A DNA stretch of 63,654 nucleotides, the filler included, from Collodictyon triciliatum (lineage: Eukaryota): NCBI GenBank assembly GCA_043381765.1. It is 6 parts of 6 records of this genome, joined end to end, with 100 filler letters (N's around TTAATTAATTAA, not from the genome) between each part and the next. Parts side by side here need not be neighbours in the genome. Positions count along the whole stretch, not along the records: positions 28,015 to 53,231 come from JBHJMP010000148.1; 5 more parts are not named here. One strand, written 5' to 3'. How positions within the stretch are numbered: the stretch's first letter is position 1; each line of letters begins with the position of its first letter. The translations under genes and the position numbers were made by a program. Below the pieces are notes generated by a model. It ran no database searches, was not told where the DNA came from, and saw only the letters and a list, made by a program, of their open reading frames with translations. Below, piece by piece: positions 11,434-55,879 of this stretch.

Positions 11434-16419
<4,986 letters not shown>

Positions 16420-22114: not shown

Positions 22115-23032
22115 CTTATTTATTTTATTTCTGTGCTTGTTTGTTTTTTTCTTTTATGATTGTTGCACCAGATCAGCCCTAATGATAATAAAGATTGTGA
22201 AAATAAAAATAATATCACATTAAAGATCCGCTCATCATACAAAGAAAGGGAAAGGGCATGATTCTACGATTTACATGCCTTCACATGACCTACTCCATCC
22301 CAACACGCGACAGTTATTATGGGATTACAGCAACAAGCGGTACGGATTGCCTTCATCAGGATACAAACGAATGCACTCCAACTCCCCTCGCGCTACTGCC
22401 TTGACAGCGTAATGGCTTGTGGATAATTGATGTGTTTGCTCGCCTTGATGGCATTATGTACCGTTCCGTGCGTTCCCAACCAACGCATAGGCATCTGTCT
22501 TTGGCGCTTACCTGGCGATGGACACAATTCGCCACGTCAGGGAGCCACTTGCATTGGGAACGCCGATATTATCAACCTGCGCTCTAGCAACGCCCTTGCA
22601 TCACGCTATACATCGCGAGAAATTATCACTGGGGTAATCAAGTGCGGTCAATTAGGACGTAGGGTGGGTATTGTCTTGCTTTTTAAAATAAATGGCTGAT
22701 GTTAAAACAAAGTCTATCTTCATGTTGACCGCCTACAAAGTTGCTTAATCAAATCTCTTGAGTGAATTAAAACACAAAATATGAAATCCATCCAATTGGC
22801 TCATTCTTTTTGAGTAACACGCAGGATACATCCACGAAGCGACTTCACACAGCGGTACAATCGGCCGCTTTCTCTGCACAAGGAAGGTCCATGCGTGGTT
22901 CAGGAGACATGCATCATTCCATTACATGGTGTCTGGACGAGATGCATTCCTCGCCCACATAAATTCAGCTGGCGGGTGTATTTGGCAGGCGAGGCATATA
23001 GGCAGGAAATAATCCCGCACAGAAGAAAACTT

Positions 23033-23151
23033 GTCTCTGTCTCTGTCTCTGTCTCTGTCTCTGTCTCTGTCTCTGTCTCTGTCTCTGTCTCTGTCTCTGT
23101 CTCTGTCTCTGTCTCTGTCTCTGTCTCTGTCTCTGTCTCTGTCTCTGTCTC
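23033..23151. repeat. (GTCTCT)n microsatellite
   Basis: Tandem hexamer array. Confidence 0.95.
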
Positions 23152-36300: not shown

Positions 36301-38612
36301 AGCTGAAGTAAAGTTCCTTTAAAACCATTGAAGGATTTGTTTCTTTGATGTAGAATTTAGTTTAACCTGACACTGACAGGCCACCTAAAATAGGGTTGCC
36401 TAAACCATCCAGAACGGCTAACTTTGGTGCATGCGTAAACGGTCCATCGTTATCGTAATTTTCATCAGGAAGAGGTTCAACTGGAACATTTTTGAGACAA
36501 ACAAAACAACAATAATATTAGATGAAAATAAAGCAAAGTTTAATAATTCAAAAGATTATATCAAAATAGCTTCAAAAATGAGCATCAAAGTGATATACAA
36601 GAGATAATAATATTGAAAATTTTCGCTTACCAAATACAAGAATCTTTGGAGTATTCATATATGAAGTAGTAACACTCAAAGACGAATCTATTGTTGGACT
36701 ATTCGATTTTTTTTGTAGTTTGCTGAGTGACATACTTCTTGCAAGACTACCTGTAAGATTTCTAGAGCAACTTCCAGAACGACTTCCAGAGCGACTCCAT
36801 GAACGACTTGCAGAACGACTTGCAGAACGACTTCTAGAGAGACTTCCAGAGAGACTTCCAGAGAGACTTCCAGAACGACTCCCAGAACGACTTGCAGAAA
36901 GACTTGCAGAACGACTTGCAGAACGACTTGCAGAACGACTCCCTGAACGACTCCCTGAACGACTCCCTGAACGACTCCCTGAACGACTTGCAGAACGACT
37001 CCCAGAACGACTTGCAGAACGACTCCCTGAACGACTCCCTGAACGACTCCCTGAACGACTCCCTGAACGACTTCCAGAGAGACTTCCAGAGAGACTTCCA
37101 GAGAGACTCCCTGAACGACTCCCAGAACGACTTGCAGAACGACTCCCTGAACGACTTCCAGAGCGACTCCATGAACGACTCCCAGAACGACTTCTAGAGA
37201 GACTTCCAGAGAGACTTCCAGAGAGACTTCCAGAGAGACTTCCAGAGAGACTTCCAGAGAGACTTCCAGAGAGACTTCCAGAGCGACTCCCTGAACGACT
37301 CCCAGAACGACTTGCAGAACGACTTCCTGCACGACTTCTCAAAATACTTCCTGAACGATTTCCAGAACAACTTCCTGAACGAGACTTTGAGCGAGACCTT
37401 GAACGAGACTTTGAATGAGACCTTGAACGAGACTTTGAATGAGACCTTGAACGAGACTTTGAATGAGACCTTGAACGAGACTTTGAATGAGACCTTGAAC
37501 GAGACTTTGAATGAGACCTTGAACGAGATTTTGAGCGAGACTTTGAGCGAGACCTTGAGCGAGACCTTGAGCGAGACCTTGAACGAGACCTTGAGCGAGA
37601 CCTTGAACGAGACCTTGAACGAGACCTCTTAGGTGACTTGGAAAATGTTCCTAAAAATAACGTCGATTGTAATACAATATTTTTTTTTTAAAAAAAAATT
37701 ATTTGAAGACTTTAGAATTGAAGACTAAATAAGCCCCCATATTCTGTAAGAAAACCAAAATTTGATCATCAAGATCCTTCAATACATGCATTCTGACACG
37801 AAGAATCATGGCCAATACGTACCTGTAAATACTTCCTTGTTGTAAAGGATGTCGGCGTACCCTACACCGCTATTCGCGGACGGATTTCCTTCAATAAGAT
37901 ATCTCGACGTTTTTGTGACAGGCTCAACCGTCCCAGGCACACCGAGGCCATTCAGCACCCATGTGGTTCCGTTTGTTGTGTAAGTGTACACAAGGGTTGG
38001 GTTTTGGTTTGTCTGCACCCTAATCGTGGCACCTGCGACAGCCACAGACTGACCAAAGTACTCGTACGACATCGAGCCGGTGAGCTTTGCCACATTGATA
38101 AGAGTGTTTCCAGAGAGTGTATACACATACACTGCTCCTCGGTTGGTACTTGCTGAGATGGTCTCGGCAGCGCAGCCCACGACTGCAATGGTCGCAGAGA
38201 CACCGACCGCATTTCCGTAGAACATGTAGGGGAGCGGGGTTGGCGGATACAGCATGGCCGACTGCAGCCACGTGGAGCCAGAAAGGGTGAAGTAGAACGC
38301 AGCCCCGCAGCCAAAGGATGCACCAAAGGATGTTGCCGGCGCTCCAACCAAAGCAGCCGTGTCTGAGATTGAGACGCTCTGCCCAAACGCCCCGCTGATA
38401 ATGCCCGGCTCCGCGCTGATGCGCTGCATGTTTGCCCAGCTCGGCTTCTGGGTGGGTGTGGCACTTGCGGCCTTTGGCAACGCAGGCACTTCGGCGCCGG
38501 TTGTTTGCTCGCCCGTGAGCATGACAAACAGCATCAGCGCGCCAAACAATCGGGGCTGCACAAAAAGCACAACGCGGCGGTTGATCCGCCATGGCTGCTT
38601 CGGACAGTCCAT
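30379..38612 (-). CDS. Large surface protein: FG-GAP repeats, Ser/Arg-repeat stalk, Cys-rich region, multi-pass TM C-terminus
   Basis: Exon 1 has a hydrophobic N-terminal segment and FG-GAP repeats (AFGQSVSIS..ALVGAP, GAVYVY, YFGQSVAV). Exon 2 is the 12-bp repeat. Later exons give CSICP, AECPGGNRVWPKEGSW, CASGYGNQFCSVCLDGYY..CQSC and then several hydrophobic helices. The putative stop at 30379 is tentative. Confidence 0.7.
31054..31360. repeat. (ACATA)n intronic microsatellite spanning a gap
   Basis: Tandem pentamer array. Confidence 0.9.
36760..37630 (-). repeat. Coding 12-bp minisatellite (Ser-Arg-Ser-X tetrapeptides)
   Basis: About 70 degenerate 12-bp units (e.g. GAACGACTCCCT, GAACGAGACCTT on +), in frame with the FG-GAP exon on the - strand. 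Confidence 0.9.
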
Positions 38613-41682: not shown

Positions 41683-42410
41683 CTGCAATAAGGAAAATTA
41701 CTCTTCATATGCCGTAATTTGAAACAGCATATACACCACACATGTGTTGTGNNNNNNNNNNNNNNNNNNNNNNNNNNNNNNNNNNNNNNNNNNNNNNNNN
41801 NNNNNNNNNNNNNNNNNNNNNNNNNNNNNNNNNNNNNNNNNNNNNNNNNNNNNNNNNNNNNNNNNNNNNNNNNNNNNNNNNNNNNNNNNNNNNNNNNNNN
41901 NNNNNNNNNNNNNNNNNNNNNNNNNNNNNNNNNNNNNNNNNNNNNNNNNNNNNNNNNNNNNNNNNNNNNNNNNNNNNNNNNNNNNNNNNNNNNNNNNNNN
42001 NNNNNNNNNNNNNNNNNNNNNNNNNNNNNNNNNNNNNNNNNNNNNNNNNNNNNNNNNNNNNNNNNNNNNNNNNNNNNNNNNNNNNNNNNNNNNNNNNNNN
42101 NNNNNNNNNNNNNNNNNNNNNNNNNNNNNNNNNNNNNNNNNNNNNNNNNNNNNNNNNNNNNNNNNNNNNNNNNNNNNNNNNNNNNNNNNNNNNNNNNNNN
42201 NNNNNNNNNNNNNNNNNNNNNNNNNNNNNNNNNNNNNNNNNNNNNNNNNNNNNNNNNNNNNNNNNNNNNNNNNNNNNNNNNNNNNNNNNNNNNNNNNNNN
42301 NNNNNNNNNNNNNNNNNNNNNNNNNNNNNNNNNNNNNNNNNNNNNNNNNNNNNNNNNNNNNNNNNNNNNNNNNNNNNNNNNNNNNNNNNNNNNNNNNNNN
42401 NNNNNNNNNN

Positions 42411-43786
42411 TATCATTACCAGCGATATTGTAAATGGTATCGGATGTGACGTCAAAGTCAATCCAAATAAGTCCATTCCATGTTTGATTCACATGAATTG
42501 CATTTTTGAGGACATTTTAACCAAAAACTGTTTCAACCAATCTCTATAAGAACTAACAATACACCATGTCATGTTACTCTAGATACTGCATGTTTGATTG
42601 TTATTAGTATCATCAGGAAAAACATTATTACTGAAGAATATGTCAGGATGCAAAGAGACCCTATGGGATAAGTTATTTGAAACGAAGAAGAGGGTCTTCA
42701 TCAAAGAGGCTAAAATTTTAAATACATGATACAAACAGACGGCTAAGCGGTGTCATTATTGTTTGAAAAGAATGGTTTTTCAAATTCAAAATACCAATAT
42801 AACCAAAAAAAATGTTTATATATAGATGAACTTTTCGAATAGCAGATATCTTTATTAGCGACAAAAAAAAATTGGTTGGAGTGGACGCAGGCGAGTTTAA
42901 TTTGGTTTACATGGTGGATGAGACAGGTAAGAAATTACGTTACACGGCATACCAAACAAGACATGATAGCAAATCTCTTAGAAATCACAAAATACTCTTG
43001 CGCGAGAAAAAAAAGTGCAATGCTTTAGGGATATGCATGGCAACAGGTTTACAAAGTGCTTTTTCCTTTGGTCAAATGACTTTTGAAGAGAATCAGCAGT
43101 TTGAGACATCAAGAGCATCTTTAATCGATTTAGAGACAGAACTGAGCAAACATAATTCATGCACAGTCGATTATGAAAAGTTTCGAAAATGTGTGTCTAT
43201 GAAATTAAGATTCCAGATAGAGTTATCCAGATTTTATGAACAAGTAACTTTTCGAAAGATGAGATGGAGACAGATTGTTAATACAAAAAGAAGTGAAGAA
43301 TTGTTTATGGACCGAATCGAAAAGACATTTGGCAAGGATGTTGTACTGGCGTATGGAGACTAGAGCAGAAAATCTCCGATGAAACATTTTATGCCAACAA
43401 TCAGAAGGGGATTACGAAAAATACTCTCCAAACGTTTTGACTCAGTGAGTGTGAATGAATTTAGAACCTCCAAGATGAGTTGTAACTGCGAAAAAGAGCT
43501 GGAATATATGCAACCGAAAGGAAATTCAAAACAGATGTATAGATGTCTCATATGTAAAGAATGTAATCGCTCAGAAAGCAAACAAACTATATTCTTGACA
43601 ACGGACTTTAACAGCGCCAAAAATATACTCAAGAAAGTTCTTTTAATCCTTCAAAAAAACTTACACCTCTCTTTAAAAAATAGGCTGTCGGGTCTTTCCT
43701 GGCAACCTTCACCACTACACAACCATGTGAAAAAAGTGATGAGACCTTGGATACTAGCGCACCAGTTTTACCAATCGATAGATTGA
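42411..43786 (+). pseudogene. Fanzor1 (TnpB-derived RNA-guided RuvC endonuclease) pseudogene, copy 1
   Basis: Motifs across frames: DVKVNP..HMN, KLFQPISIRTNNTPCHVTLDTA, FKYMIQTDG*AVSLLF, RuvC-I VGVDAG (D 42884), FRKMRW, VVLAYGD*S, RuvC-II VNEFRTSK (E 43457), Zn-finger SCNC...CKEC, RuvC-III TDFNSAKNI (D 43604). Several in-frame stops and frameshifts; no introns. Confidence 0.88.
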
Positions 43787-43802
43787 TATACCCCTTCTAG
43801 TG
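43682..43802 (+). ncRNA. Candidate Fanzor omegaRNA scaffold, copy 1
   Basis: Conserved with copy 2 and able to form consecutive hairpins: AGGCTGTCGGG/CCTGGCAACCT, TCACCACT..AGTGATGA, ACTAG..CTAGT enclosing CAATC-GATA-GATTG. It overlaps the ORF end and abuts the element right end, as expected for TnpB/Fanzor omegaRNAs. Confidence 0.6.
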
Positions 43803-44095
43803 TATATGATAAATGTAAAACGAACCATGAGTAAATGTGATGGATATATTATAATATCCAAAAATAGATAAAACAGAAGGCCGCAACTGTCGTCCGCTGT
43901 TGATGCGTGCGCGCTATGTTTTTAATCGAAAGGCGGGTGGATAGCCGATGAGTTTTTATTTGCGATGTAAAGAGGATGCAGGATGAGCAACCAAGTGCTT
44001 TATTTCATGTGATTCTGGAGGTTAATAGGAAAAAAATCTTTTCGAAGCACAGAGCTGAGTGTAGGTGAGAAAGATTTTCCATTTTTTTTTCTTTC

Positions 44096-46921
44096 TTAAC
44101 TACCAGTACTCTTAAACAACGCAAGATTTTTTTCTGCTTCCTTACTCCCTTGTATTGCCAACAGCTCCAACAAATCAATTATCTCTTCGCGATGTGCCAC
44201 TTTGTCTTTTTTAATTAGCAGCTCGGCAAGAAGTTTCAATGATTTCTTGTCGTTCATTTGGTATCCAGCGCGCAGATACCCTTCGGCCAAGCGTATATTA
44301 TGCCCATGCCACTCAGTGTTCATGTAGGCCATTCCGAGGTGTCGCTTGCATATTCCATTCGGGGTTGCATCCATGACTTCAAAGAGTTCGACGGCTCGGT
44401 CTATGTCCCTGTCTACTCCTTTTCCAAAGTAATACATGTACGCCAGGTTGAAAGTGCTGGATGTCTTACCCTGCTCATAGGCACTTTTGAACCAGCGGGC
44501 TGCTTCGGCATAATTAACAACACACCCGACACCATTGTAATACATGAATCCGGCCTGGTTTTGTGACTTGGCACACCCCATGTTTGCTCCCATCTCATAC
44601 CAAGATAGCGCCAGCCGCTCAAAGTTCCGGGCAACCTCTGGCTCTTTGGTACTTTTCTTTGCCCACGAAAGGTAGTACGTTCCAAGTTCAGATGCTGCCG
44701 CAGCATATCCAGCTTTTGCAGCACGCTCTTTGAATTTTATAGACTCTTCCATAGATTTTTCAACACCACGTCCACTCTCATAGAATGAAGCTATTTTTGC
44801 AAGGGCCTCTCCGTGCTCACCCTCTGCAGCAGCCATGTAGTATCGAAATGCTACCTGTTCGTTTTGGTAGTCCTTCTCGTCATTTCCTTCGTATAATTGC
44901 CCAAGGCGGAATGCCGCGTCGTGTATTCCTTTTTCGGTAGCTTCCTGCAGTAATGATACTCCCCTTTTAATATCCTTGGTAACTCCTTGTCCATTGATAA
45001 AACAAATACCCAGCTGATAAATGGCCTCATCATGACCAGCATTCATCGATTGCACAATCCAATTAATTGCTTCATTCTCTTCTAGGGCGGTTTTAATTTC
45101 CGGTTGTATTGAAAGAATATGTTTTCCTAGGAGAAGCATTGCTGGGGCATAACCGTAAGACGCCGCAACTCTAATATGACGCAAGAACATCGATTCATCT
45201 CTTATGAAACCCCTTTCAGATGGCTGGATATAGTAAATTGCAAGATTGTAGTTGGCAACAGCGTCTCCCATAATAGAAGCTTTTCTGAGCCAAACCAGAG
45301 CCGATGTAATATTTTGGATTGTCCCCAATGCATCCATGTAACACACTGCCGTGTTTGTCATAGCAGAGAGGACTCCAGTATTTGCAGACCTTTCATACAT
45401 AACGAAAGCTTCATGAACGTTGTATGCTGGGCTGTTGGGATTGTTGAGACAATCTCCTAGACCAAGCAGAGCAAATCCGTGGCTGGATTCTATTTTCAAG
45501 AGTTTTTGATAGTTTTTAATTGCTTCTGGGATATTACCCGTCACATGCCAACCAAGTTGGTAATATTTGCCTCTTAAAAACATAGCATGAAGGGATGCGA
45601 CACTTTCCGAATCAGTTTGCAGACTCTCTGCAATTTGATCGAGATATATCCAACCTTGTGTATAATCCTTGCTAATCCATGTATGATAATGTGCCATGAA
45701 GAGAATTGAAACCCAGACAACATCTCTTTGGTTCATGGACGCTTCGACAATACTTTGCGTGATTACAGATATTATGGTTTCATTGCTTTCTGAAGATTCT
45801 GAGAATGCTTTTGCTGAGTTCGGGTTATAAAGAGATGAGAAGTGGGAATCATACTCCATGAAAAAATCGTCGGGTCTCCCATCTGGACTTTTTTTTGAAT
45901 CCACCGCGAATCTCTCATGGGATTCCTCTTTGAAAATGGTAGAATCGTCCTTATTCGACGTCCACGTCTCTGTATTGCCCAATTTTAGTACAGGGCCTAG
46001 AGTTGCTTCAGTTTTTGGTAATTTTGTATGGGCGGTTTCTTTCTCACTTTTCAGTATGACCGAGGCGTTGACTTTATCACGAAGTTTATTAGGGTTCATC
46101 AAATGGAAAATGAACAATATCAACCGGTACAGGGGAACTGGTAACCTATCTTCAAAGTTTACTACGCTTTCGAGAGCTTCATTACTTTCTTTGCTAGATA
46201 AAGTCGAGTAAATAAATATCAATCTTTTTGCAGCATCGTTTGGAACTCGTAACCCAGTTGCCATGTTTTCGTTAGCTTTAGGAGCTGATGTTGATTTAGG
46301 TAAGAGCTTTACCGAGTTGATTATAGATTCAGAAATCTTGCATGTTTGAGGAATGCTACATTCGGCGCCATGGTGCGCTGCCTGTTAGTTTTAACAGGAT
46401 ATAAGTTGTTTTTTTAACACCTTTATTCGATGATAGCAAGATAATATGCTATTTATTTTGGATGTATATTTATAACGAGAGGAAGTATCCAATTTCTGAT
46501 TAATTCTACAAAGACAAACCTGTGGCCTGGTACCATATTTTGGCCCAAGAAGGTCAAGGTAATCATGAAGCGGCATGGCCTTTATGCGGGATGAGTCTAA
46601 ACAATTCGAATAGGATTGGATTCCTGGTGAGGATTGACTAATGATATCTCGAACACGTTTGAGTCTACGGATTGATATGGATGAGTTTATATTCGCGTCG
46701 TGAAGCCATTGCTCGACTGGGATTTGCATAAACTCTTCTCGCGTGACCGTCCATTTTGTCAGGAACTCAATAAACTCGGTTTGGATTTTCCCCAACTCCA
46801 TTTCTCTGCACAGAGCTTGACATTCGTGCCTGCGATCGCTGGTCTCTGGAACAGATTTTTGGGCCATTTTTGTGTTTCTGCGTTTCCGCTTGGCTTTCGG
46901 CTCAACATCTTCATTGTCCAT
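44096..46921 (-). CDS. Sel1-like repeat protein with N-terminal NLS-like and possible SAM-like region (2 exons, intron 46382-46519)
   Basis: About ten Sel1 repeats (AIYQLGICFINGQGVTKDIKRGVSLLQEATEKG; SQNQAGFMYYNGVGCVVNYAEAARWFKSAYEQG). A phase-0 intron GTTTGT...CTAACAG joins ORF 46391-46921 in frame to ORF 44096-46264. Confidence 0.88.
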
Positions 46922-47029
46922 CCCTGACTAAAAACTTGGACCAACTATTGTTCTATTTAAGACTGTTTATGCTCAATTATCAGACAGTCCTTTTCCTTCA
47001 TGTTAAGCTTACGTTGTCTTCCCTTCTTT

Positions 47030-47331
47030 TTCCCTTTTTTTTGTTTTTTTTTTTGTTTTTTGTTATTTTGTTTTTTTGTTTTTTTGTTTTTTTGTTTTTT
47101 TGTTTTTTTGTTTTTTGTTTTTTGTTTTTTTTTTTTTGTTTTTTGTTTTTTTTTTTGTTTTTTGTTTTTTGTTTTTTGTTTTTGTTTTGTTTTTTGTTTT
47201 TTGTTTTTGTTTTTTGTTTTTGTTTTTTGTTTTTGTTTTTTGTTTTTTTTTTTTTTTGTTTTTTGTTTTGTTTTTTGTTTTTTGTTTTTTGTTTTTTGTT
47301 TTTTGTTTTTTGTTTTTTGTTTTTTGTTTTT
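47030..47331. repeat. Degenerate (TTTTTTG)n tract between divergent genes
   Basis: Low-complexity T-rich tandem array. Confidence 0.9.
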
Positions 47332-47879
47332 CTGAAGCATTCTCAGCTGCTGGCGAAGCGAACCCACGAGCATATTGATGCGCTTGCGCGTGTTTGGGTC
47401 TGAGGCCCTAACCCAAAAAGCCCAGAACGATGTCCGACGAATTCGATCAGAAAGAAAAAGAAAACTTGGTTGTTTCATATATAATATACCGTAAATATAA
47501 TATGATATATTCAAACCGCATACGCTCTGTTTCTGCTAAAAATTGAAACGGACAAGAAAAGAATGCTGGTGGGATGCGAAGGGCAACCAAAAAGAACAGC
47601 AGAAAAAAAGATAGAAAAGAAACGACCGGGCAAACAAAGCGAGTCACGCATTTGTTGCAGGTGTTGACTGGCATAGTAAATAGCCTTCCTGATTCACTAT
47701 TAACAGGAAGAAAAAAAAGGAGCAAAGCCTTTTATTCGCCGGGTGCCCCATTCTCCAAGGGAAAGCAGTGGGGTGCAAAAGAGAAGGGTTGATAGGAGGA
47801 GGAAGAAGAAAAGAAGAAAAAAAAAGCAATACAAGACGAAGACGAAAAGATCACCCGGACTGGAACTAAACGCGAGGTT

Positions 47880-53719: not shown

Positions 53720-53840
53720 TACTAGAAAGAGTATACCAATAAAAGACTAGTGAACCTGGTTTGCTAGTATCCAAGGTCTCACCATTTTTTTCACAAAGAT
53801 TGTGTAGTGGTGAAGGCTGCCTGGAAAGAGCCAACAGCCT
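53720..53840 (-). ncRNA. Candidate Fanzor omegaRNA scaffold, copy 2
   Basis: On the - strand the hairpins AGGCTGTTGG/CCAGGCAGCCT, TCACCA..CACA..TGTG..TGGTGA and TACTAG..CTAGTA are homologous to copy 1. Confidence 0.6.
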
Positions 53841-54322
53841 GTTTTTTAGAGGAAGGTGTATGCATTTTTTGAATGATTAAAAGAACTTTGTTGAGTATGT
53901 TATTAGCGCTGTTAAAGTCCGTTGTCAAGAATACAGTTTGTTTGCTTTCTGAGCGATTGCATTCTTTACATATGAGACATCTATACACCTTTTTGTATTT
54001 TCTTTCAGTTTCATACAGTTCATTTCTTTTTTCGCAGTTGCAACACATCTTGGAGGTTCTTAATTCATCTACACTAACTGCTTCAAAACGTTTGGATATT
54101 ATTTTTCGTAATTGTCTTCCGATTATTGCCATAAAATGTTTCATCTGACATTTTCTGCTCCAGTCCCCATAGGCCAGTACAACATCCTAGCCAAATGTCT
54201 TTTCGATTCAGTCCATAAACAATTCTTCACTTCTTTTTGTATTGACATAGTGTCTCCATCTCATCTTTCGAAAAGCTACTTGTTCATAAAATCTGGGTAA
54301 TTCTGTCTGGTATCTTGATTTC
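53720..54322 (-). pseudogene. Fanzor1 element copy 2 (3' part; upstream portion in a 719-N gap)
   Basis: Collinear with 43201-43802, roughly 85-90% identical in the coding part by hand count: FRKMRW, MD*IEKTFG*DVVLAYGDWS, VDELRTSKMCCNC...CKEC, TDFNSANNI. Stops at 54208-54210 and 54187-54189. Confidence 0.88.
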
Positions 54323-55879
54323 NNNNNNNNNNNNNNNNNNNNNNNNNNNNNNNNNNNNNNNNNNNNNNNNNNNNNNNNNNNNNNNNNNNNNNNNNNNNNN
54401 NNNNNNNNNNNNNNNNNNNNNNNNNNNNNNNNNNNNNNNNNNNNNNNNNNNNNNNNNNNNNNNNNNNNNNNNNNNNNNNNNNNNNNNNNNNNNNNNNNNN
54501 NNNNNNNNNNNNNNNNNNNNNNNNNNNNNNNNNNNNNNNNNNNNNNNNNNNNNNNNNNNNNNNNNNNNNNNNNNNNNNNNNNNNNNNNNNNNNNNNNNNN
54601 NNNNNNNNNNNNNNNNNNNNNNNNNNNNNNNNNNNNNNNNNNNNNNNNNNNNNNNNNNNNNNNNNNNNNNNNNNNNNNNNNNNNNNNNNNNNNNNNNNNN
54701 NNNNNNNNNNNNNNNNNNNNNNNNNNNNNNNNNNNNNNNNNNNNNNNNNNNNNNNNNNNNNNNNNNNNNNNNNNNNNNNNNNNNNNNNNNNNNNNNNNNN
54801 NNNNNNNNNNNNNNNNNNNNNNNNNNNNNNNNNNNNNNNNNNNNNNNNNNNNNNNNNNNNNNNNNNNNNNNNNNNNNNNNNNNNNNNNNNNNNNNNNNNN
54901 NNNNNNNNNNNNNNNNNNNNNNNNNNNNNNNNNNNNNNNNNNNNNNNNNNNNNNNNNNNNNNNNNNNNNNNNNNNNNNNNNNNNNNNNNNNNNNNNNNNN
55001 NNNNNNNNNNNNNNNNNNNNNNNNNNNNNNNNNNNNNNNNNGAAAGATAATTGCATAGGAAGATAGAGGGTGGTTTATTTTTCTAAAAAGCAGTTAACTT
55101 GAATCACAGTCGATTTTACATGTCATAGCCAACGAAAGGACATACCCTCGTCTTGAATTATAGGCTTCCTTCATCGGTGCCCGCGGGGGTGGGGGCGGAG
55201 GTGGGGATGTGATCCACAAATGGTATAAATCTCACCTTTCTTTTGGCGAAATTTCTCCCCACCACAGAACAGAATCGTTCCGAGACTAATTCCAGATATA
55301 GTTCAATTTGAGTAGGATTATGGACAGAGGCCTTTTTTTTTCTTTTTTTTCTGGTTGTTGGTTATTCGATTTACCTTTATATTTGCAAACTGTCCACATC
55401 GAATATTGCTTATACAAACGGAATCGAAAAAATATTATGCAAAGCAGCAGTTTCGATATTGTCTGTGATACAGAAAAGTGATCCAAAAGCGGAGGCCTTA
55501 ATCCGAGCCTCGCTTCAGACCCAAACATCATCCCCTCATATACGAGTCCTTTCACAGCCCAGCTCTACTTTTCATTTATGTTTGTGCACTCCTCACACTC
55601 ACGCATCCAGACCGACTCCGAAGTTTTTGGTATATGCATCAAAGAAAAGAAAAGAAAAGAAAAAAAAAGAAAAGAAAAAATGAAAAATGAAAAATGAAAA
55701 AAATAAAAAGAGAAAAGAAAAACGAAAAGAAAAACGAAAAGAAAAAAGAGAAAGAAAAAGAAAAAGAGAAAAGAGAAAAGAGAAAAGAGAAAAGAGAAAA
55801 GAGAAAGAGAAAAGAGAAAGAGAAAGAGAATGAGAAAGATATCATTATTATTCACAGTGCGTCACTCAGACAAGCTGTT

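Follow-up and report, generated by a model that had tools for sequence, protein, structure and literature searches.

The DNA stretch that we analyzed (63,654 nucleotides; hereafter the window) contains two incomplete copies of a mobile element, each of which retains the 3′ part of a nuclease gene. Copy A occupies positions 42412-43801 on the plus strand and copy B occupies positions 54321-53721 on the minus strand. The first-pass annotation had claimed a second copy, and we found that the two are indeed inverted relative to each other, with arms at 43201-43495 and 54028-54322 that are 89% complementary. Runs of N at 41753-42411 and 54323-55041 occupy the expected left parts of copies A and B, respectively.

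We used tblastn with P0001, an intact 648-amino acid relative, to delimit the nuclease genes. The gene of copy A (42412-43730, plus strand) corresponds to residues ~204-643 of P0001 and is 66% identical to it across 42866-43654. Its 5′ part is missing into the adjoining N run, two frames are needed to follow 42412-42869, where several stops are present, and an in-frame TAG lies at 43361-43363. The gene of copy B (53800-54321, minus strand) corresponds to residues 470-643. It aligns at 64% identity without a change of frame, though two in-frame stops interrupt it, and it is truncated at its own N run.

To place this gene within a family, we compared it with solved Fanzor1 chains. The window fragment matched Parasitella PpFz1 (9cf0; E 4.7e-08) and Spizellomyces SpuFz1 (8gkh; E 1.9e-04), and a profile of 23 homologues matched 9cf0 (E 1.4e-59), 8gkh over its full length (E 1.3e-58, positions 3-606), and GtFz1 (9cer; E 1.6e-49). 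Pfam and NCBIfam scans of the fragment returned TnpB-type matches below threshold only – the NCBIfam guided_TnpB match, at E 0.0018, falls far under the cut-off – and PF26935, which is precomputed as an annotation on 43/43 homologues, was nevertheless not returned by a direct Pfam scan. Judged by these comparisons, the gene adjoining 43682-43802 is a decayed Fanzor1. Its protein clade is sparsely sampled: P0001, at 66% identity, is the sole close relative among the matches listed, and all other relatives listed from the collections that we searched reach at most 47%. The best listed identities were 47% and 43% for viral contigs (two query alignments) and 47% for JGI metagenome contigs, and prokaryote genome contigs gave one match of 39%, within a MAG.

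Bao and Jurka (2013) describe the Fanzor1 motif as D-X-[TS][TS]-X-X-[C4 zinc finger]-X-RD (PMC3627910). The window copies retain parts of it – the D of GVDAG, the TS of EFRTSK, and the second CxxC – and neither carries the motif in full. Both copies have TD in place of the RD found in 23/23 aligned homologues, and in copy A a serine replaces the invariant first zinc-finger cysteine. Together with the stops and frameshifts, the TD and the lost cysteine indicate a decayed rather than a working Fanzor1 member.

The reading frames of the two copies end differently, as had been noted before, and we traced this difference to a 1-nt indel that copy A carries near 43661. Copy B holds the frame of P0001, ending in ...KKQAVGSFQAAFTTTQ followed by SL and a stop. 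We therefore place the ancestral stop at ~43728-43730, which is 71-72 nt from the end of the element. The 3′ region under study lies on the sense strand of the gene and overlaps the 3′ end of the ancestral Fanzor ORF.

We next delimited the element. The pairwise alignment of copies A and B covers 43682-43802 and ends at ~43801-43802; beyond this boundary, identity drops to 43-48%, the level for unrelated AT-rich DNA. Three contigs of metagenome run X1 diverge from the stretch behind 43801, which is the last base that they share with it. Because the homology between the copies stops at ~43801 and the X1 contigs depart at the same base, we assign 43801 as the right end of the element and mark the boundary, without strand, at 43800-43802 (...CTTCTAG followed by T). 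A right end is the place where published Fanzor and TnpB guide RNAs are encoded. The reverse complement of this right end has no further match within the window. If an RNA were made from copy A, its guide would lie at about 43802-43820 on the plus strand, going by the 14-21 nt guides reported for Fanzors (PMC10432273, PMC10530073, PMC10711439). The would-be guide 16-mers of copies A and B are each present in the window solely at their own flank. The contig comparison placed 261 contigs along the stretch at 80-99% likeness. In run X3, which stems from a related organism, two contigs link 43440 or 43444 with 43675 or 43684, and X3 contig cover drops past ~43788; the RNA label of this run is a guess, so the contigs say nothing on expression and the drop is not evidence.

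Within the 3′ region (43682-43802 on the plus strand in copy A; 53721-53840 on the minus strand in copy B, ending at ~53721), the first-pass annotation had quoted three stem elements. All three are present in both copies where it had placed them, and the minimum free energy (MFE) folds of the copies have identical topology. Stem 1 (43682-43708) is an imperfect 10-11 bp hairpin in the coding tail. It encodes ..QAVGSFQAAF.., aligned to KKQAVGYSS of P0001, and because it is coding sequence its conservation can be at the protein level. Stem 2 (43709-43742) has an outer helix, TCACCAC/GTGATGA, an inner helix, CACA/TGTG, and an A-rich internal loop; the ancestral stop falls inside it, and it bears the sequence TTCAC..AAAAAAGT that is common to giant-virus relatives. 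An AGACC motif at 43742-43746 follows, which in those relatives is the 3′ strand of an outer helix. Stem 3 (43752-43802) consists of a closing helix, TACTAG/CTAGTR, in which 43752-43757 pairs with 43797-43802, and an inner hairpin at 43770-43787. The region thus ends at the right end of the transposon, with the element's last bases forming the 3′ strand of its closing helix.

By folding energy these structures are unexceptional. Copy A has a z-score of -1.21, with 24/200 shuffled sequences being as stable, and copy B one of -1.61, with 14/200. Folds of the antisense strand are about as stable as those of the sense strand. An Rfam scan of 43300-44000 returned chance-level matches only (E above 2). 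We also considered an outer helix like that of the giant viruses, pairing GGTCT at 43691-43695 with AGACC, and rejected it: forcing it costs ~7-12 kcal/mol relative to the MFE fold, and in copy B the helix would contain a mismatch.

The first-pass annotation had described ~120 nt as conserved between the copies. The alignment does run through the whole region, but identity there (99/120 aligned bases, or 82.5%, plus 6 gap columns) is lower than in the decayed ORF at 43201-43681 (424/480, or 88.3%), so that the likeness speaks for shared descent only. It had also held that several substitutions keep pairing. The consensus fold of the two copies has 66/74 cells paired, and 25 of its 37 pairs are invariant. 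Among the 12 variable pairs, four retain pairing through one-sided changes compatible with G-U on the sense strand, but the other eight are unpaired in one copy. By element, stem 1 (11 pairs) has seven invariant pairs, one changed to G-U, and three broken in one copy; stem 2 (13 pairs) has ten invariant and three broken in one copy; the closing helix of stem 3 (six pairs) has five invariant and one that alternates between U-G and U-A; and its inner hairpin (seven pairs) has three invariant, two with G-U changes, and two broken in one copy. Compensatory double changes number 0/37 in this comparison of two copies, and the covariation seen by eye thus fails once it is counted. A slid-partner control is uninformative here, since the two sequences being tested are the ones that yielded the structure. 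On their own, copies A and B are no proof of an RNA; the support is comparative.

That support comes from giant-virus Fanzor1 relatives, which are 38-47% identical to P0001 at the protein level and are the closest relatives with DNA among the matches listed. Their elements measure ~2.35-2.46 kb and carry ~30-bp terminal inverted repeats of the form TACACC...GGTGTA. We aligned 49 of 65 distinct giant-virus 3′ ends and found a 22-pair structure with pairing in 99.0% of 1024 cells and with changes on both sides in 10/22 pairs. None of 500 shuffles reached 10 double changes, and slid controls gave 2-4. By this pattern of substitution, the giant-virus relatives have a strongly covarying RNA at the same position as the 3′ region of the window. 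The distance from stop to element end is 70-89 nt in 86/94 distinct giant-virus loci, a range that includes the 71-72 nt of the window. An Rfam scan of the 3′ elements in four relative loci gave no match.

A composite motif drawn from the relatives' RNA, TTCAC..AAAAART..AGACC, is present in 120/160 relative loci, where it sits at the ORF 3′ end. It has two matches in the 63.6-kb window, which are the two copies, against an expectation of 0.01, for a pattern that was widened, through its R and its gap lengths, after the window had been seen. Models built from the relatives did not recover the region. A covariance model of the relatives' RNA detected neither window copy under default filters; with filters off, copy B scored 4.6 bits (E 0.41 in 401 nt, not significant), the sole match in the correct place, and copy A yielded a local stem only (2.7 bits). 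A search with nhmmer and the relatives' alignment listed neither copy A nor copy B, and an exact 17-mer of the 3′ region was not found in viral contigs.

The window elements and the giant-virus elements have the same gene orientation, an RNA or candidate RNA that overlaps the ORF end (by the last ~70 nt in the viruses), the TTCAC..AAAAAGT..AGACC motif, and a closing helix that finishes at the element terminus. They differ in the last ~60 nt, where the viruses have a T-rich spacer, a variable hairpin, and a GGCGTTTTAAATG..AAGGTGTA terminal repeat that are without counterpart in the window, and where the window element ends in ..CTTCTAG, unlike the viral repeat. By these searches, the window right end has only the short composite motif in common with the TACACC...GGTGTA right ends. 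Going by published description, the giant-virus elements are probably of the Mariner-Fanzor1 kind known for PGv-1 and its relatives (PMC3627910).

We conclude that a DNA transposon carrying Fanzor1, now decayed and lying in a eukaryote-like genome, has its right end at 43682-43802, and that ~43709-43801 is probably what remains of the guide-RNA (omegaRNA or reRNA) scaffold of this family. The proposal that the region is an omegaRNA scaffold is consistent with its location, its architecture, and the RNA of its relatives; against it stand the absence of covariation between copies A and B, the failure of the relatives' models to detect the region, the coding nature of stem 1, and the death of both genes. 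We infer that in the window clade this region is transcribed and bound by Fanzor1. In intact members, a sense-strand transcript would run from the last nuclease codons, through the stop, to the transposon end and on for ~15-20 nt into the flank. Fanzor1 would bind the folded part, in which a stem-loop spans the stop codon, a small hairpin follows, and the element's terminal bases form part of a closing helix; the flank-derived tail would direct DNA cleavage. Since neither nuclease gene is intact and the stems are starting to decay, copies A and B probably have no activity of their own; at most, intact copies elsewhere could use them in trans.

We weighed this scaffold reading against the possibility that the region is transposon-end DNA and nothing else, holding terminal or subterminal sites for a transposase or replication protein, with the likeness between the copies reflecting common descent and no RNA function. 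According to PMC3627910, Helitron1 elements have the ends 5′-TC and CTRR-3′ and a single 3′-subterminal hairpin, and Helitrons that contain Fanzor1 are known. Consistent with an end of this type, both copies terminate in CTAG (43797-43800 in A; 53725-53722 in B) followed by a T, which in copy A is 43801, the last base common to the three X1 contigs, and copy A has a 5-bp hairpin at 43773-43786, 10 nt upstream of the CTAG end. The lack of excess conservation and of compensatory change between the copies also counts in favor of this explanation. Yet the inner hairpin survives in copy B only by virtue of two G-U pairs; in DNA, these are mismatched and make the hairpin weak. Stem 2, like the shared motif, is 55-90 nt away from the end, too distant for a terminal recognition site. 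A role in DNA, moreover, does not exclude one in RNA, because the terminal repeat is part of the published Fanzor1 scaffold (PMC10711439). We consider it unlikely that the region is transposon-end DNA only.

Another possibility is that the region is simply the ordinary 3′ UTR of the nuclease mRNA, together with its transcript-end signal, and that the hairpins serve no particular purpose. It does lie directly past the ancestral stop on the sense strand, and its fold energies are unremarkable, but its end coincides exactly with a mobile-element boundary and not with a poly(A)-type signal, and the equivalent stretch in the relatives covaries and is conserved far beyond what a UTR would need. In all of the Fanzor loci studied in PMC10432273 and PMC10530073, the guide RNA is placed here, at the ORF 3′ end or right end. 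We regard a UTR as very improbable. An even slimmer chance attaches to a fortuitous fold of neutral sequence in two recent duplicates: modest z-scores (-1.21 and -1.61) and an uninformative slid-partner control would fit such a fold, but the stem over the stop codon and the terminal closing helix parallel those of the relatives and of published Fanzor1 RNAs (PMC10711439), and they occur at the position where this family's RNA is expected.

Under the preferred reading, a probable guide-RNA scaffold relic in a known kind of element, the outcome is annotation: a eukaryote-like genome is shown to contain two dead copies of a Fanzor1 transposon, with the right end of each marked, and the known picture of Fanzor function is unchanged. 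The window clade may already be present in the supplementary Fanzor locus tables of PMC10432273 and PMC10530073. For the giant-virus sister family, the analysis provides a well-supported model of guide-RNA structure. If intact copies of the window element exist, their compact scaffold of ~95 nt with a different terminal helix would represent another natural Fanzor1 guide design. We can also envisage, as a speculation that we think rather doubtful, that a Fanzor1 lineage, whose nearest relatives are carried by mariner-like elements in freshwater giant viruses, moved into a eukaryotic genome on a different, CTAG-ending, possibly Helitron-like backbone, kept the ORF-overlapping stem of its guide RNA, and rebuilt the guide-proximal closing helix from the new termini. 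If this were so, it would represent natural modular exchange of a guide-RNA scaffold upon capture of the nuclease by a new transposon, and deletion derivatives that keep the 3′ module only would be ‘ghost’ guide elements.

The arrangement proposed for the window can be compared with guide RNAs that have been characterized. The ISDra2 TnpB omegaRNA is likewise encoded at the right end, overlaps the 3′ end of the nuclease ORF, and takes its guide from the flank, though it belongs to a prokaryotic IS200/IS605 element (PMC10432273), and protein similarity to the window is weak (NCBIfam guided_TnpB E 0.0018). TnpB and Fanzor2 RNAs are described as having a pseudoknot and Fanzor1 RNAs as lacking one (PMC10711439). 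SpuFz1, from the Spizellomyces punctatus element Spu-1, is of the same Fanzor1 protein family. Its scaffold, 75 nt long, lies downstream of the stop and upstream of the 3′ inverted repeat, compared with 71-72 nt from stop to end here, and its guide comes from 14-15 nt of flank, a feature that is only prospective in the window (Saito et al. 2023, PMC10432273). Spu-1, like the window element, is a multi-copy family, with full, partial, and stripped copies; gene-less ‘ghost’ loci are described for Spu-1 (PMC10432273). Unlike that of SpuFz1, the window fold begins within the ORF, as in published GtFz1 (17-amino acid overlap), and the window genes are dead and their RNA is predicted.

Fanzor1 reRNAs are described by Yoon et al. 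(2023, PMC10711439) as having three stems, a scaffold that includes the terminal inverted repeat and target-site duplication (TIR/TSD), and a double-stranded stem at the terminus. Those of insect viruses, such as Spodoptera frugiperda ascovirus 1a, belong to another clade and another transposon backbone, and they were sequenced in vivo, whereas the window RNA is a prediction (PMC10711439). They reach ~15 nt past the element end, as would the RNA predicted for the window. The window fold has the same three-stem shape, needs no pseudoknot, and, as in the insect-virus reRNAs, uses the terminal bases of the element as one strand of its closing stem (PMC10711439).

There is no doubt that the interval 43682–43802 forms the right end of a decayed Fanzor1 element. 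A repeat search of the window, which looks eukaryotic in its N runs, microsatellites and long homopolymer tracts (a perfect (TGTCTC)n array at 23032–23151, a long array of 12-nt period at 36600–37700, and long low-complexity tracts, A-rich and T-rich and broken up by N, at 12650–13150 and 47000–47350), found one long inverted pair, 43201–43495 against 54028–54322, 89% complementary. Pairwise alignment of the two copies involved, copy A (42412–43801, +) and copy B (54321–53721, −), finds them homologous from the N run at which copy B is cut off, across 43682–43802, to ~43802, past which identity drops to 43–48%. We compared contigs from public sequencing runs with 42420–44100 at 80% likeness. 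Three contigs of run X1, a metagenome, diverge at 43801 with unlike letters beyond; both they and the alignment favor ...CTTCTAG|T as the right end. The stretch is matched by 261 contigs of run X3, so other copies exist. Two X3 contigs join 43440 or 43444 straight to 43675 or 43684, one with 12 other letters between; such deletion copies (43440–43684 gap) have lost the zinc-finger/RuvC-III part and kept the 3′ module. On the opposite strand, a 722-aa ORF with many Sel1/TPR repeats and no interruption (44096–46264, −; Sel1 E 5.1e-39) begins ~290 nt past the right end of A.

The adjacent gene is assigned to Fanzor1 by its sequence matches: the window fragment matched the solved chains of PpFz1 (E 4.7e-08) and SpuFz1 (E 1.9e-04), and a profile of 23 homologues matched SpuFz1 over its full length (E 1.3e-58). 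Pfam and NCBIfam gave the fragment only below-threshold TnpB-type matches (PF07282, E 0.1; guided_TnpB, E 0.0018). A protein search returned 43 longer homologues, of which the intact 648-aa P0001 is 66% identical and the others at most 46%. PF26935 is precomputed on 43 of these 43 proteins (P0001–P0043) and had no match in our own Pfam scan.

Both gene copies are dead. The sense translation of copy A contains GVDAGEF, an in-frame TAG in ..AYGD*S.., EFRTSK, a zinc-finger region and ..TTDFNSAKNI..; tblastn with P0001 places it in two frames with several stops in 42412–42869, plus the TAG at 43361–43363, and finds two in-frame stops in copy B. Nearly all contigs at the TAG codon carry G at 43362 (16 in X3, 1 in X1), so other copies are unbroken at this site. 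Copy A lacks one invariant zinc-finger cysteine. Within LTTDF, in the RuvC-III region (43586–43600 in A, 53946–53960 in B), both copies have TD versus the RD invariant in 23 of 23 aligned homologues, and this change therefore predates their divergence. N runs at 41753–42411 (659 bases) and 54323–55041 (719 bases) hide the 5′ part of both copies, leaving the left end and the first ~200 codons unreadable in each. Copies A and B are probably inert.

The sequence features named in the first-pass annotation are real: its three quoted elements are present in both copies, and ViennaRNA folds both into the same three-part topology, comprising, in copy A coordinates, stem 1 (43682–43708), stem 2 (43709–43742) and stem 3, a closing helix (43752–43757/43797–43802) around an inner hairpin (43770–43787). 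The differing reading-frame ends also held up. Copy B stays in a single frame through the tail KKQAVGSFQAAFTTTQ, which precedes SL and a stop, and its alignment with KKQAVGYSSTALTVTH of P0001 places the ancestral stop at ~43728–43730 in copy A coordinates; the frame of copy A runs on to 43786 because of a 1-nt indel near 43661. From the ancestral stop, stem 1 and half of stem 2 were coding, with a stop-to-end distance of 71–72 nt. The 3′ region shows no excess conservation: 99 of 120 aligned bases are identical (82.5%, plus 6 gap columns) versus 424 of 480 (88.3%) in ORF 43201–43681.

The claim that substitutions keep pairing holds in part. Among 37 pairs in five helices on the A/B alignment, 25 are invariant, 4 have one-sided changes, each with G-U as one of the two states, and 8 form in just one copy; compensatory double changes number 0 of 37. 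Since these two sequences are also the source of the structure, neither the paired fraction (89.2% of cells) nor a slid-partner control is informative. Fold energies gave z = -1.21 for copy A, matched by 24 of 200 shuffles, and z = -1.61 for copy B (14 of 200), and the antisense strand folds about as well as the sense; on the sense strand, 4 of 4 one-sided changes permit wobble pairing, the sole, small strand-specific hint. Alone, the two copies do not support an RNA structure.

Hundreds of loci, many on giant-virus MAG contigs, encode relatives at 38–47% identity. We scanned IMG/VR and JGI metagenome contigs and took the best 80 of 515 and best 80 of 413 confirmed stretches. Their ORF ends and ~80 nt downstream are strikingly conserved, stopping abruptly at ..AAGGTGTA. 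We aligned 49 of 65 distinct ends, leaving out near-duplicates (L014, L025, L029, L035, L041, L062, L068, L071, L073, L074, L079), ends with large insertions (L032, L036) and ends with a mis-set start anchor (L047, L054, L058). Insertions of ~50–60 nt lie in the variable hairpin at L036:4767–4981 and, as a G+C-rich block, in the first stem-loop at L032:3757–3962. RNAalifold gave a predicted 15 pairs, 7 with double changes. When this structure was extended by hand to 22 pairs in four helices, 99.0% of 1024 cells were paired, and 10 of its pairs have changed on both sides (0 of 500 shuffles equal this; slid controls give 2–4). Its outer helix (GUCU/AGAC) encloses a variable stem-loop that overlaps the last codons; it further has a small hairpin 3′ of the stop, a variable hairpin and, pairing over a long range, the closing helix UACAY/GUGUA, whose 3′ strand is the element terminus.

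These relatives form ~2.35–2.46 kb elements with ~30-bp terminal inverted repeats, TACACC...GGTGTA (e.g., L016:2518–4914). We sought the left repeat up to 520 nt from the start codon in the 94 distinct loci with enough upstream sequence; in 42 (elements of 2345–2455 bp) at least 24 of 30 positions equal the reverse complement of the right end. The other 52 (51 scoring below 18/30, one 18–23) may be longer or differently built elements. Stop-to-end distance is 70–89 nt in 86 of the 94. Partial second right-end repeats (..CGGCGTTTGAAATGTTAAAAGGTGTAA and similar), ~60 nt past the right end of L027 and just past those of L023 and L043, look like solo ends or nested-insertion remnants.

The composite motif TTCAC..AAAAART..AGACC is present a single time at the 3′ end of the ORF in 120 of 160 relative loci and twice in the window, exactly in copies A and B (expected 0.01), a match of limited weight because the pattern was loosened after the window had been seen. 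A covariance model of the relatives' RNA found no match in the window with default filters; with filters off, copy B scored 4.6 bits (E 0.41 in 401 nt) and copy A gave a 2.7-bit local stem. The copy B alignment matches stem 2 with the first helix of the relatives and ACUAG/CUAGU with the closing one, a parallel of architecture rather than demonstrable homology. With the relatives' alignment, nhmmer returned neither window copy, and neither the window region nor the relatives' RNA corresponds to an Rfam family. When the relatives' outer helix (GGUCU/AGACC) is imposed on the window copies, the penalty is ~7–12 kcal/mol, and we rejected this pairing. The T-rich spacer, variable hairpin and terminal repeat of the giant-virus relatives lack counterparts in the window copies. 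Among the matches listed from viral, JGI metagenome and prokaryote genome contigs, no closer relative with DNA was found.

Position, geometry and the covarying RNA that the nearest relatives have at this place speak for the first-pass proposal of an omegaRNA scaffold; against it stand the lack of covariation between the copies and the relatives' models, which do not recognize the region. Adding the published rule for Fanzor loci, we favor reading the interval as a relic of the family's guide-RNA scaffold, a probable though not secure assignment; it does not draw on covariation between the copies, since there is none. Further evidence would be needed before stem 1 is counted as scaffold. The element's clade would be a sparsely sampled addition to the known Fanzor1 guide-RNA type.

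Transposon termini offer another comparison. Mariner, Helitron and other transposons captured Fanzor1, and the Helitron1 signature is 5′-TC, CTRR-3′ and one 3′-subterminal hairpin (Bao and Jurka, PMC3627910). The CTAG end in the window, the hairpin 10 nt upstream and the following T would also fit a possible terminus of this type; the left ends are missing. Among published guide RNAs, those bound by Fanzor derive from non-coding sequence on the 3′ side, directly against the right end (Jiang et al., PMC10530073). Transcripts reach 14–15 nt into the variable flank, the GtFz1 RNA overlaps its gene by 17 codons, and gene-less 'ghost' loci are known (Saito et al., PMC10432273). Fanzor1 reRNAs, the guide RNAs, are three-stem folds without a pseudoknot; their scaffold includes the terminal repeat and target duplication, with a double-stranded stem from the terminal bases and then ~15 nt of guide (Yoon et al., PMC10711439). 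The strand, position and length of the window region, and the closing stem at its terminus, match the Fanzor1 design in these accounts.
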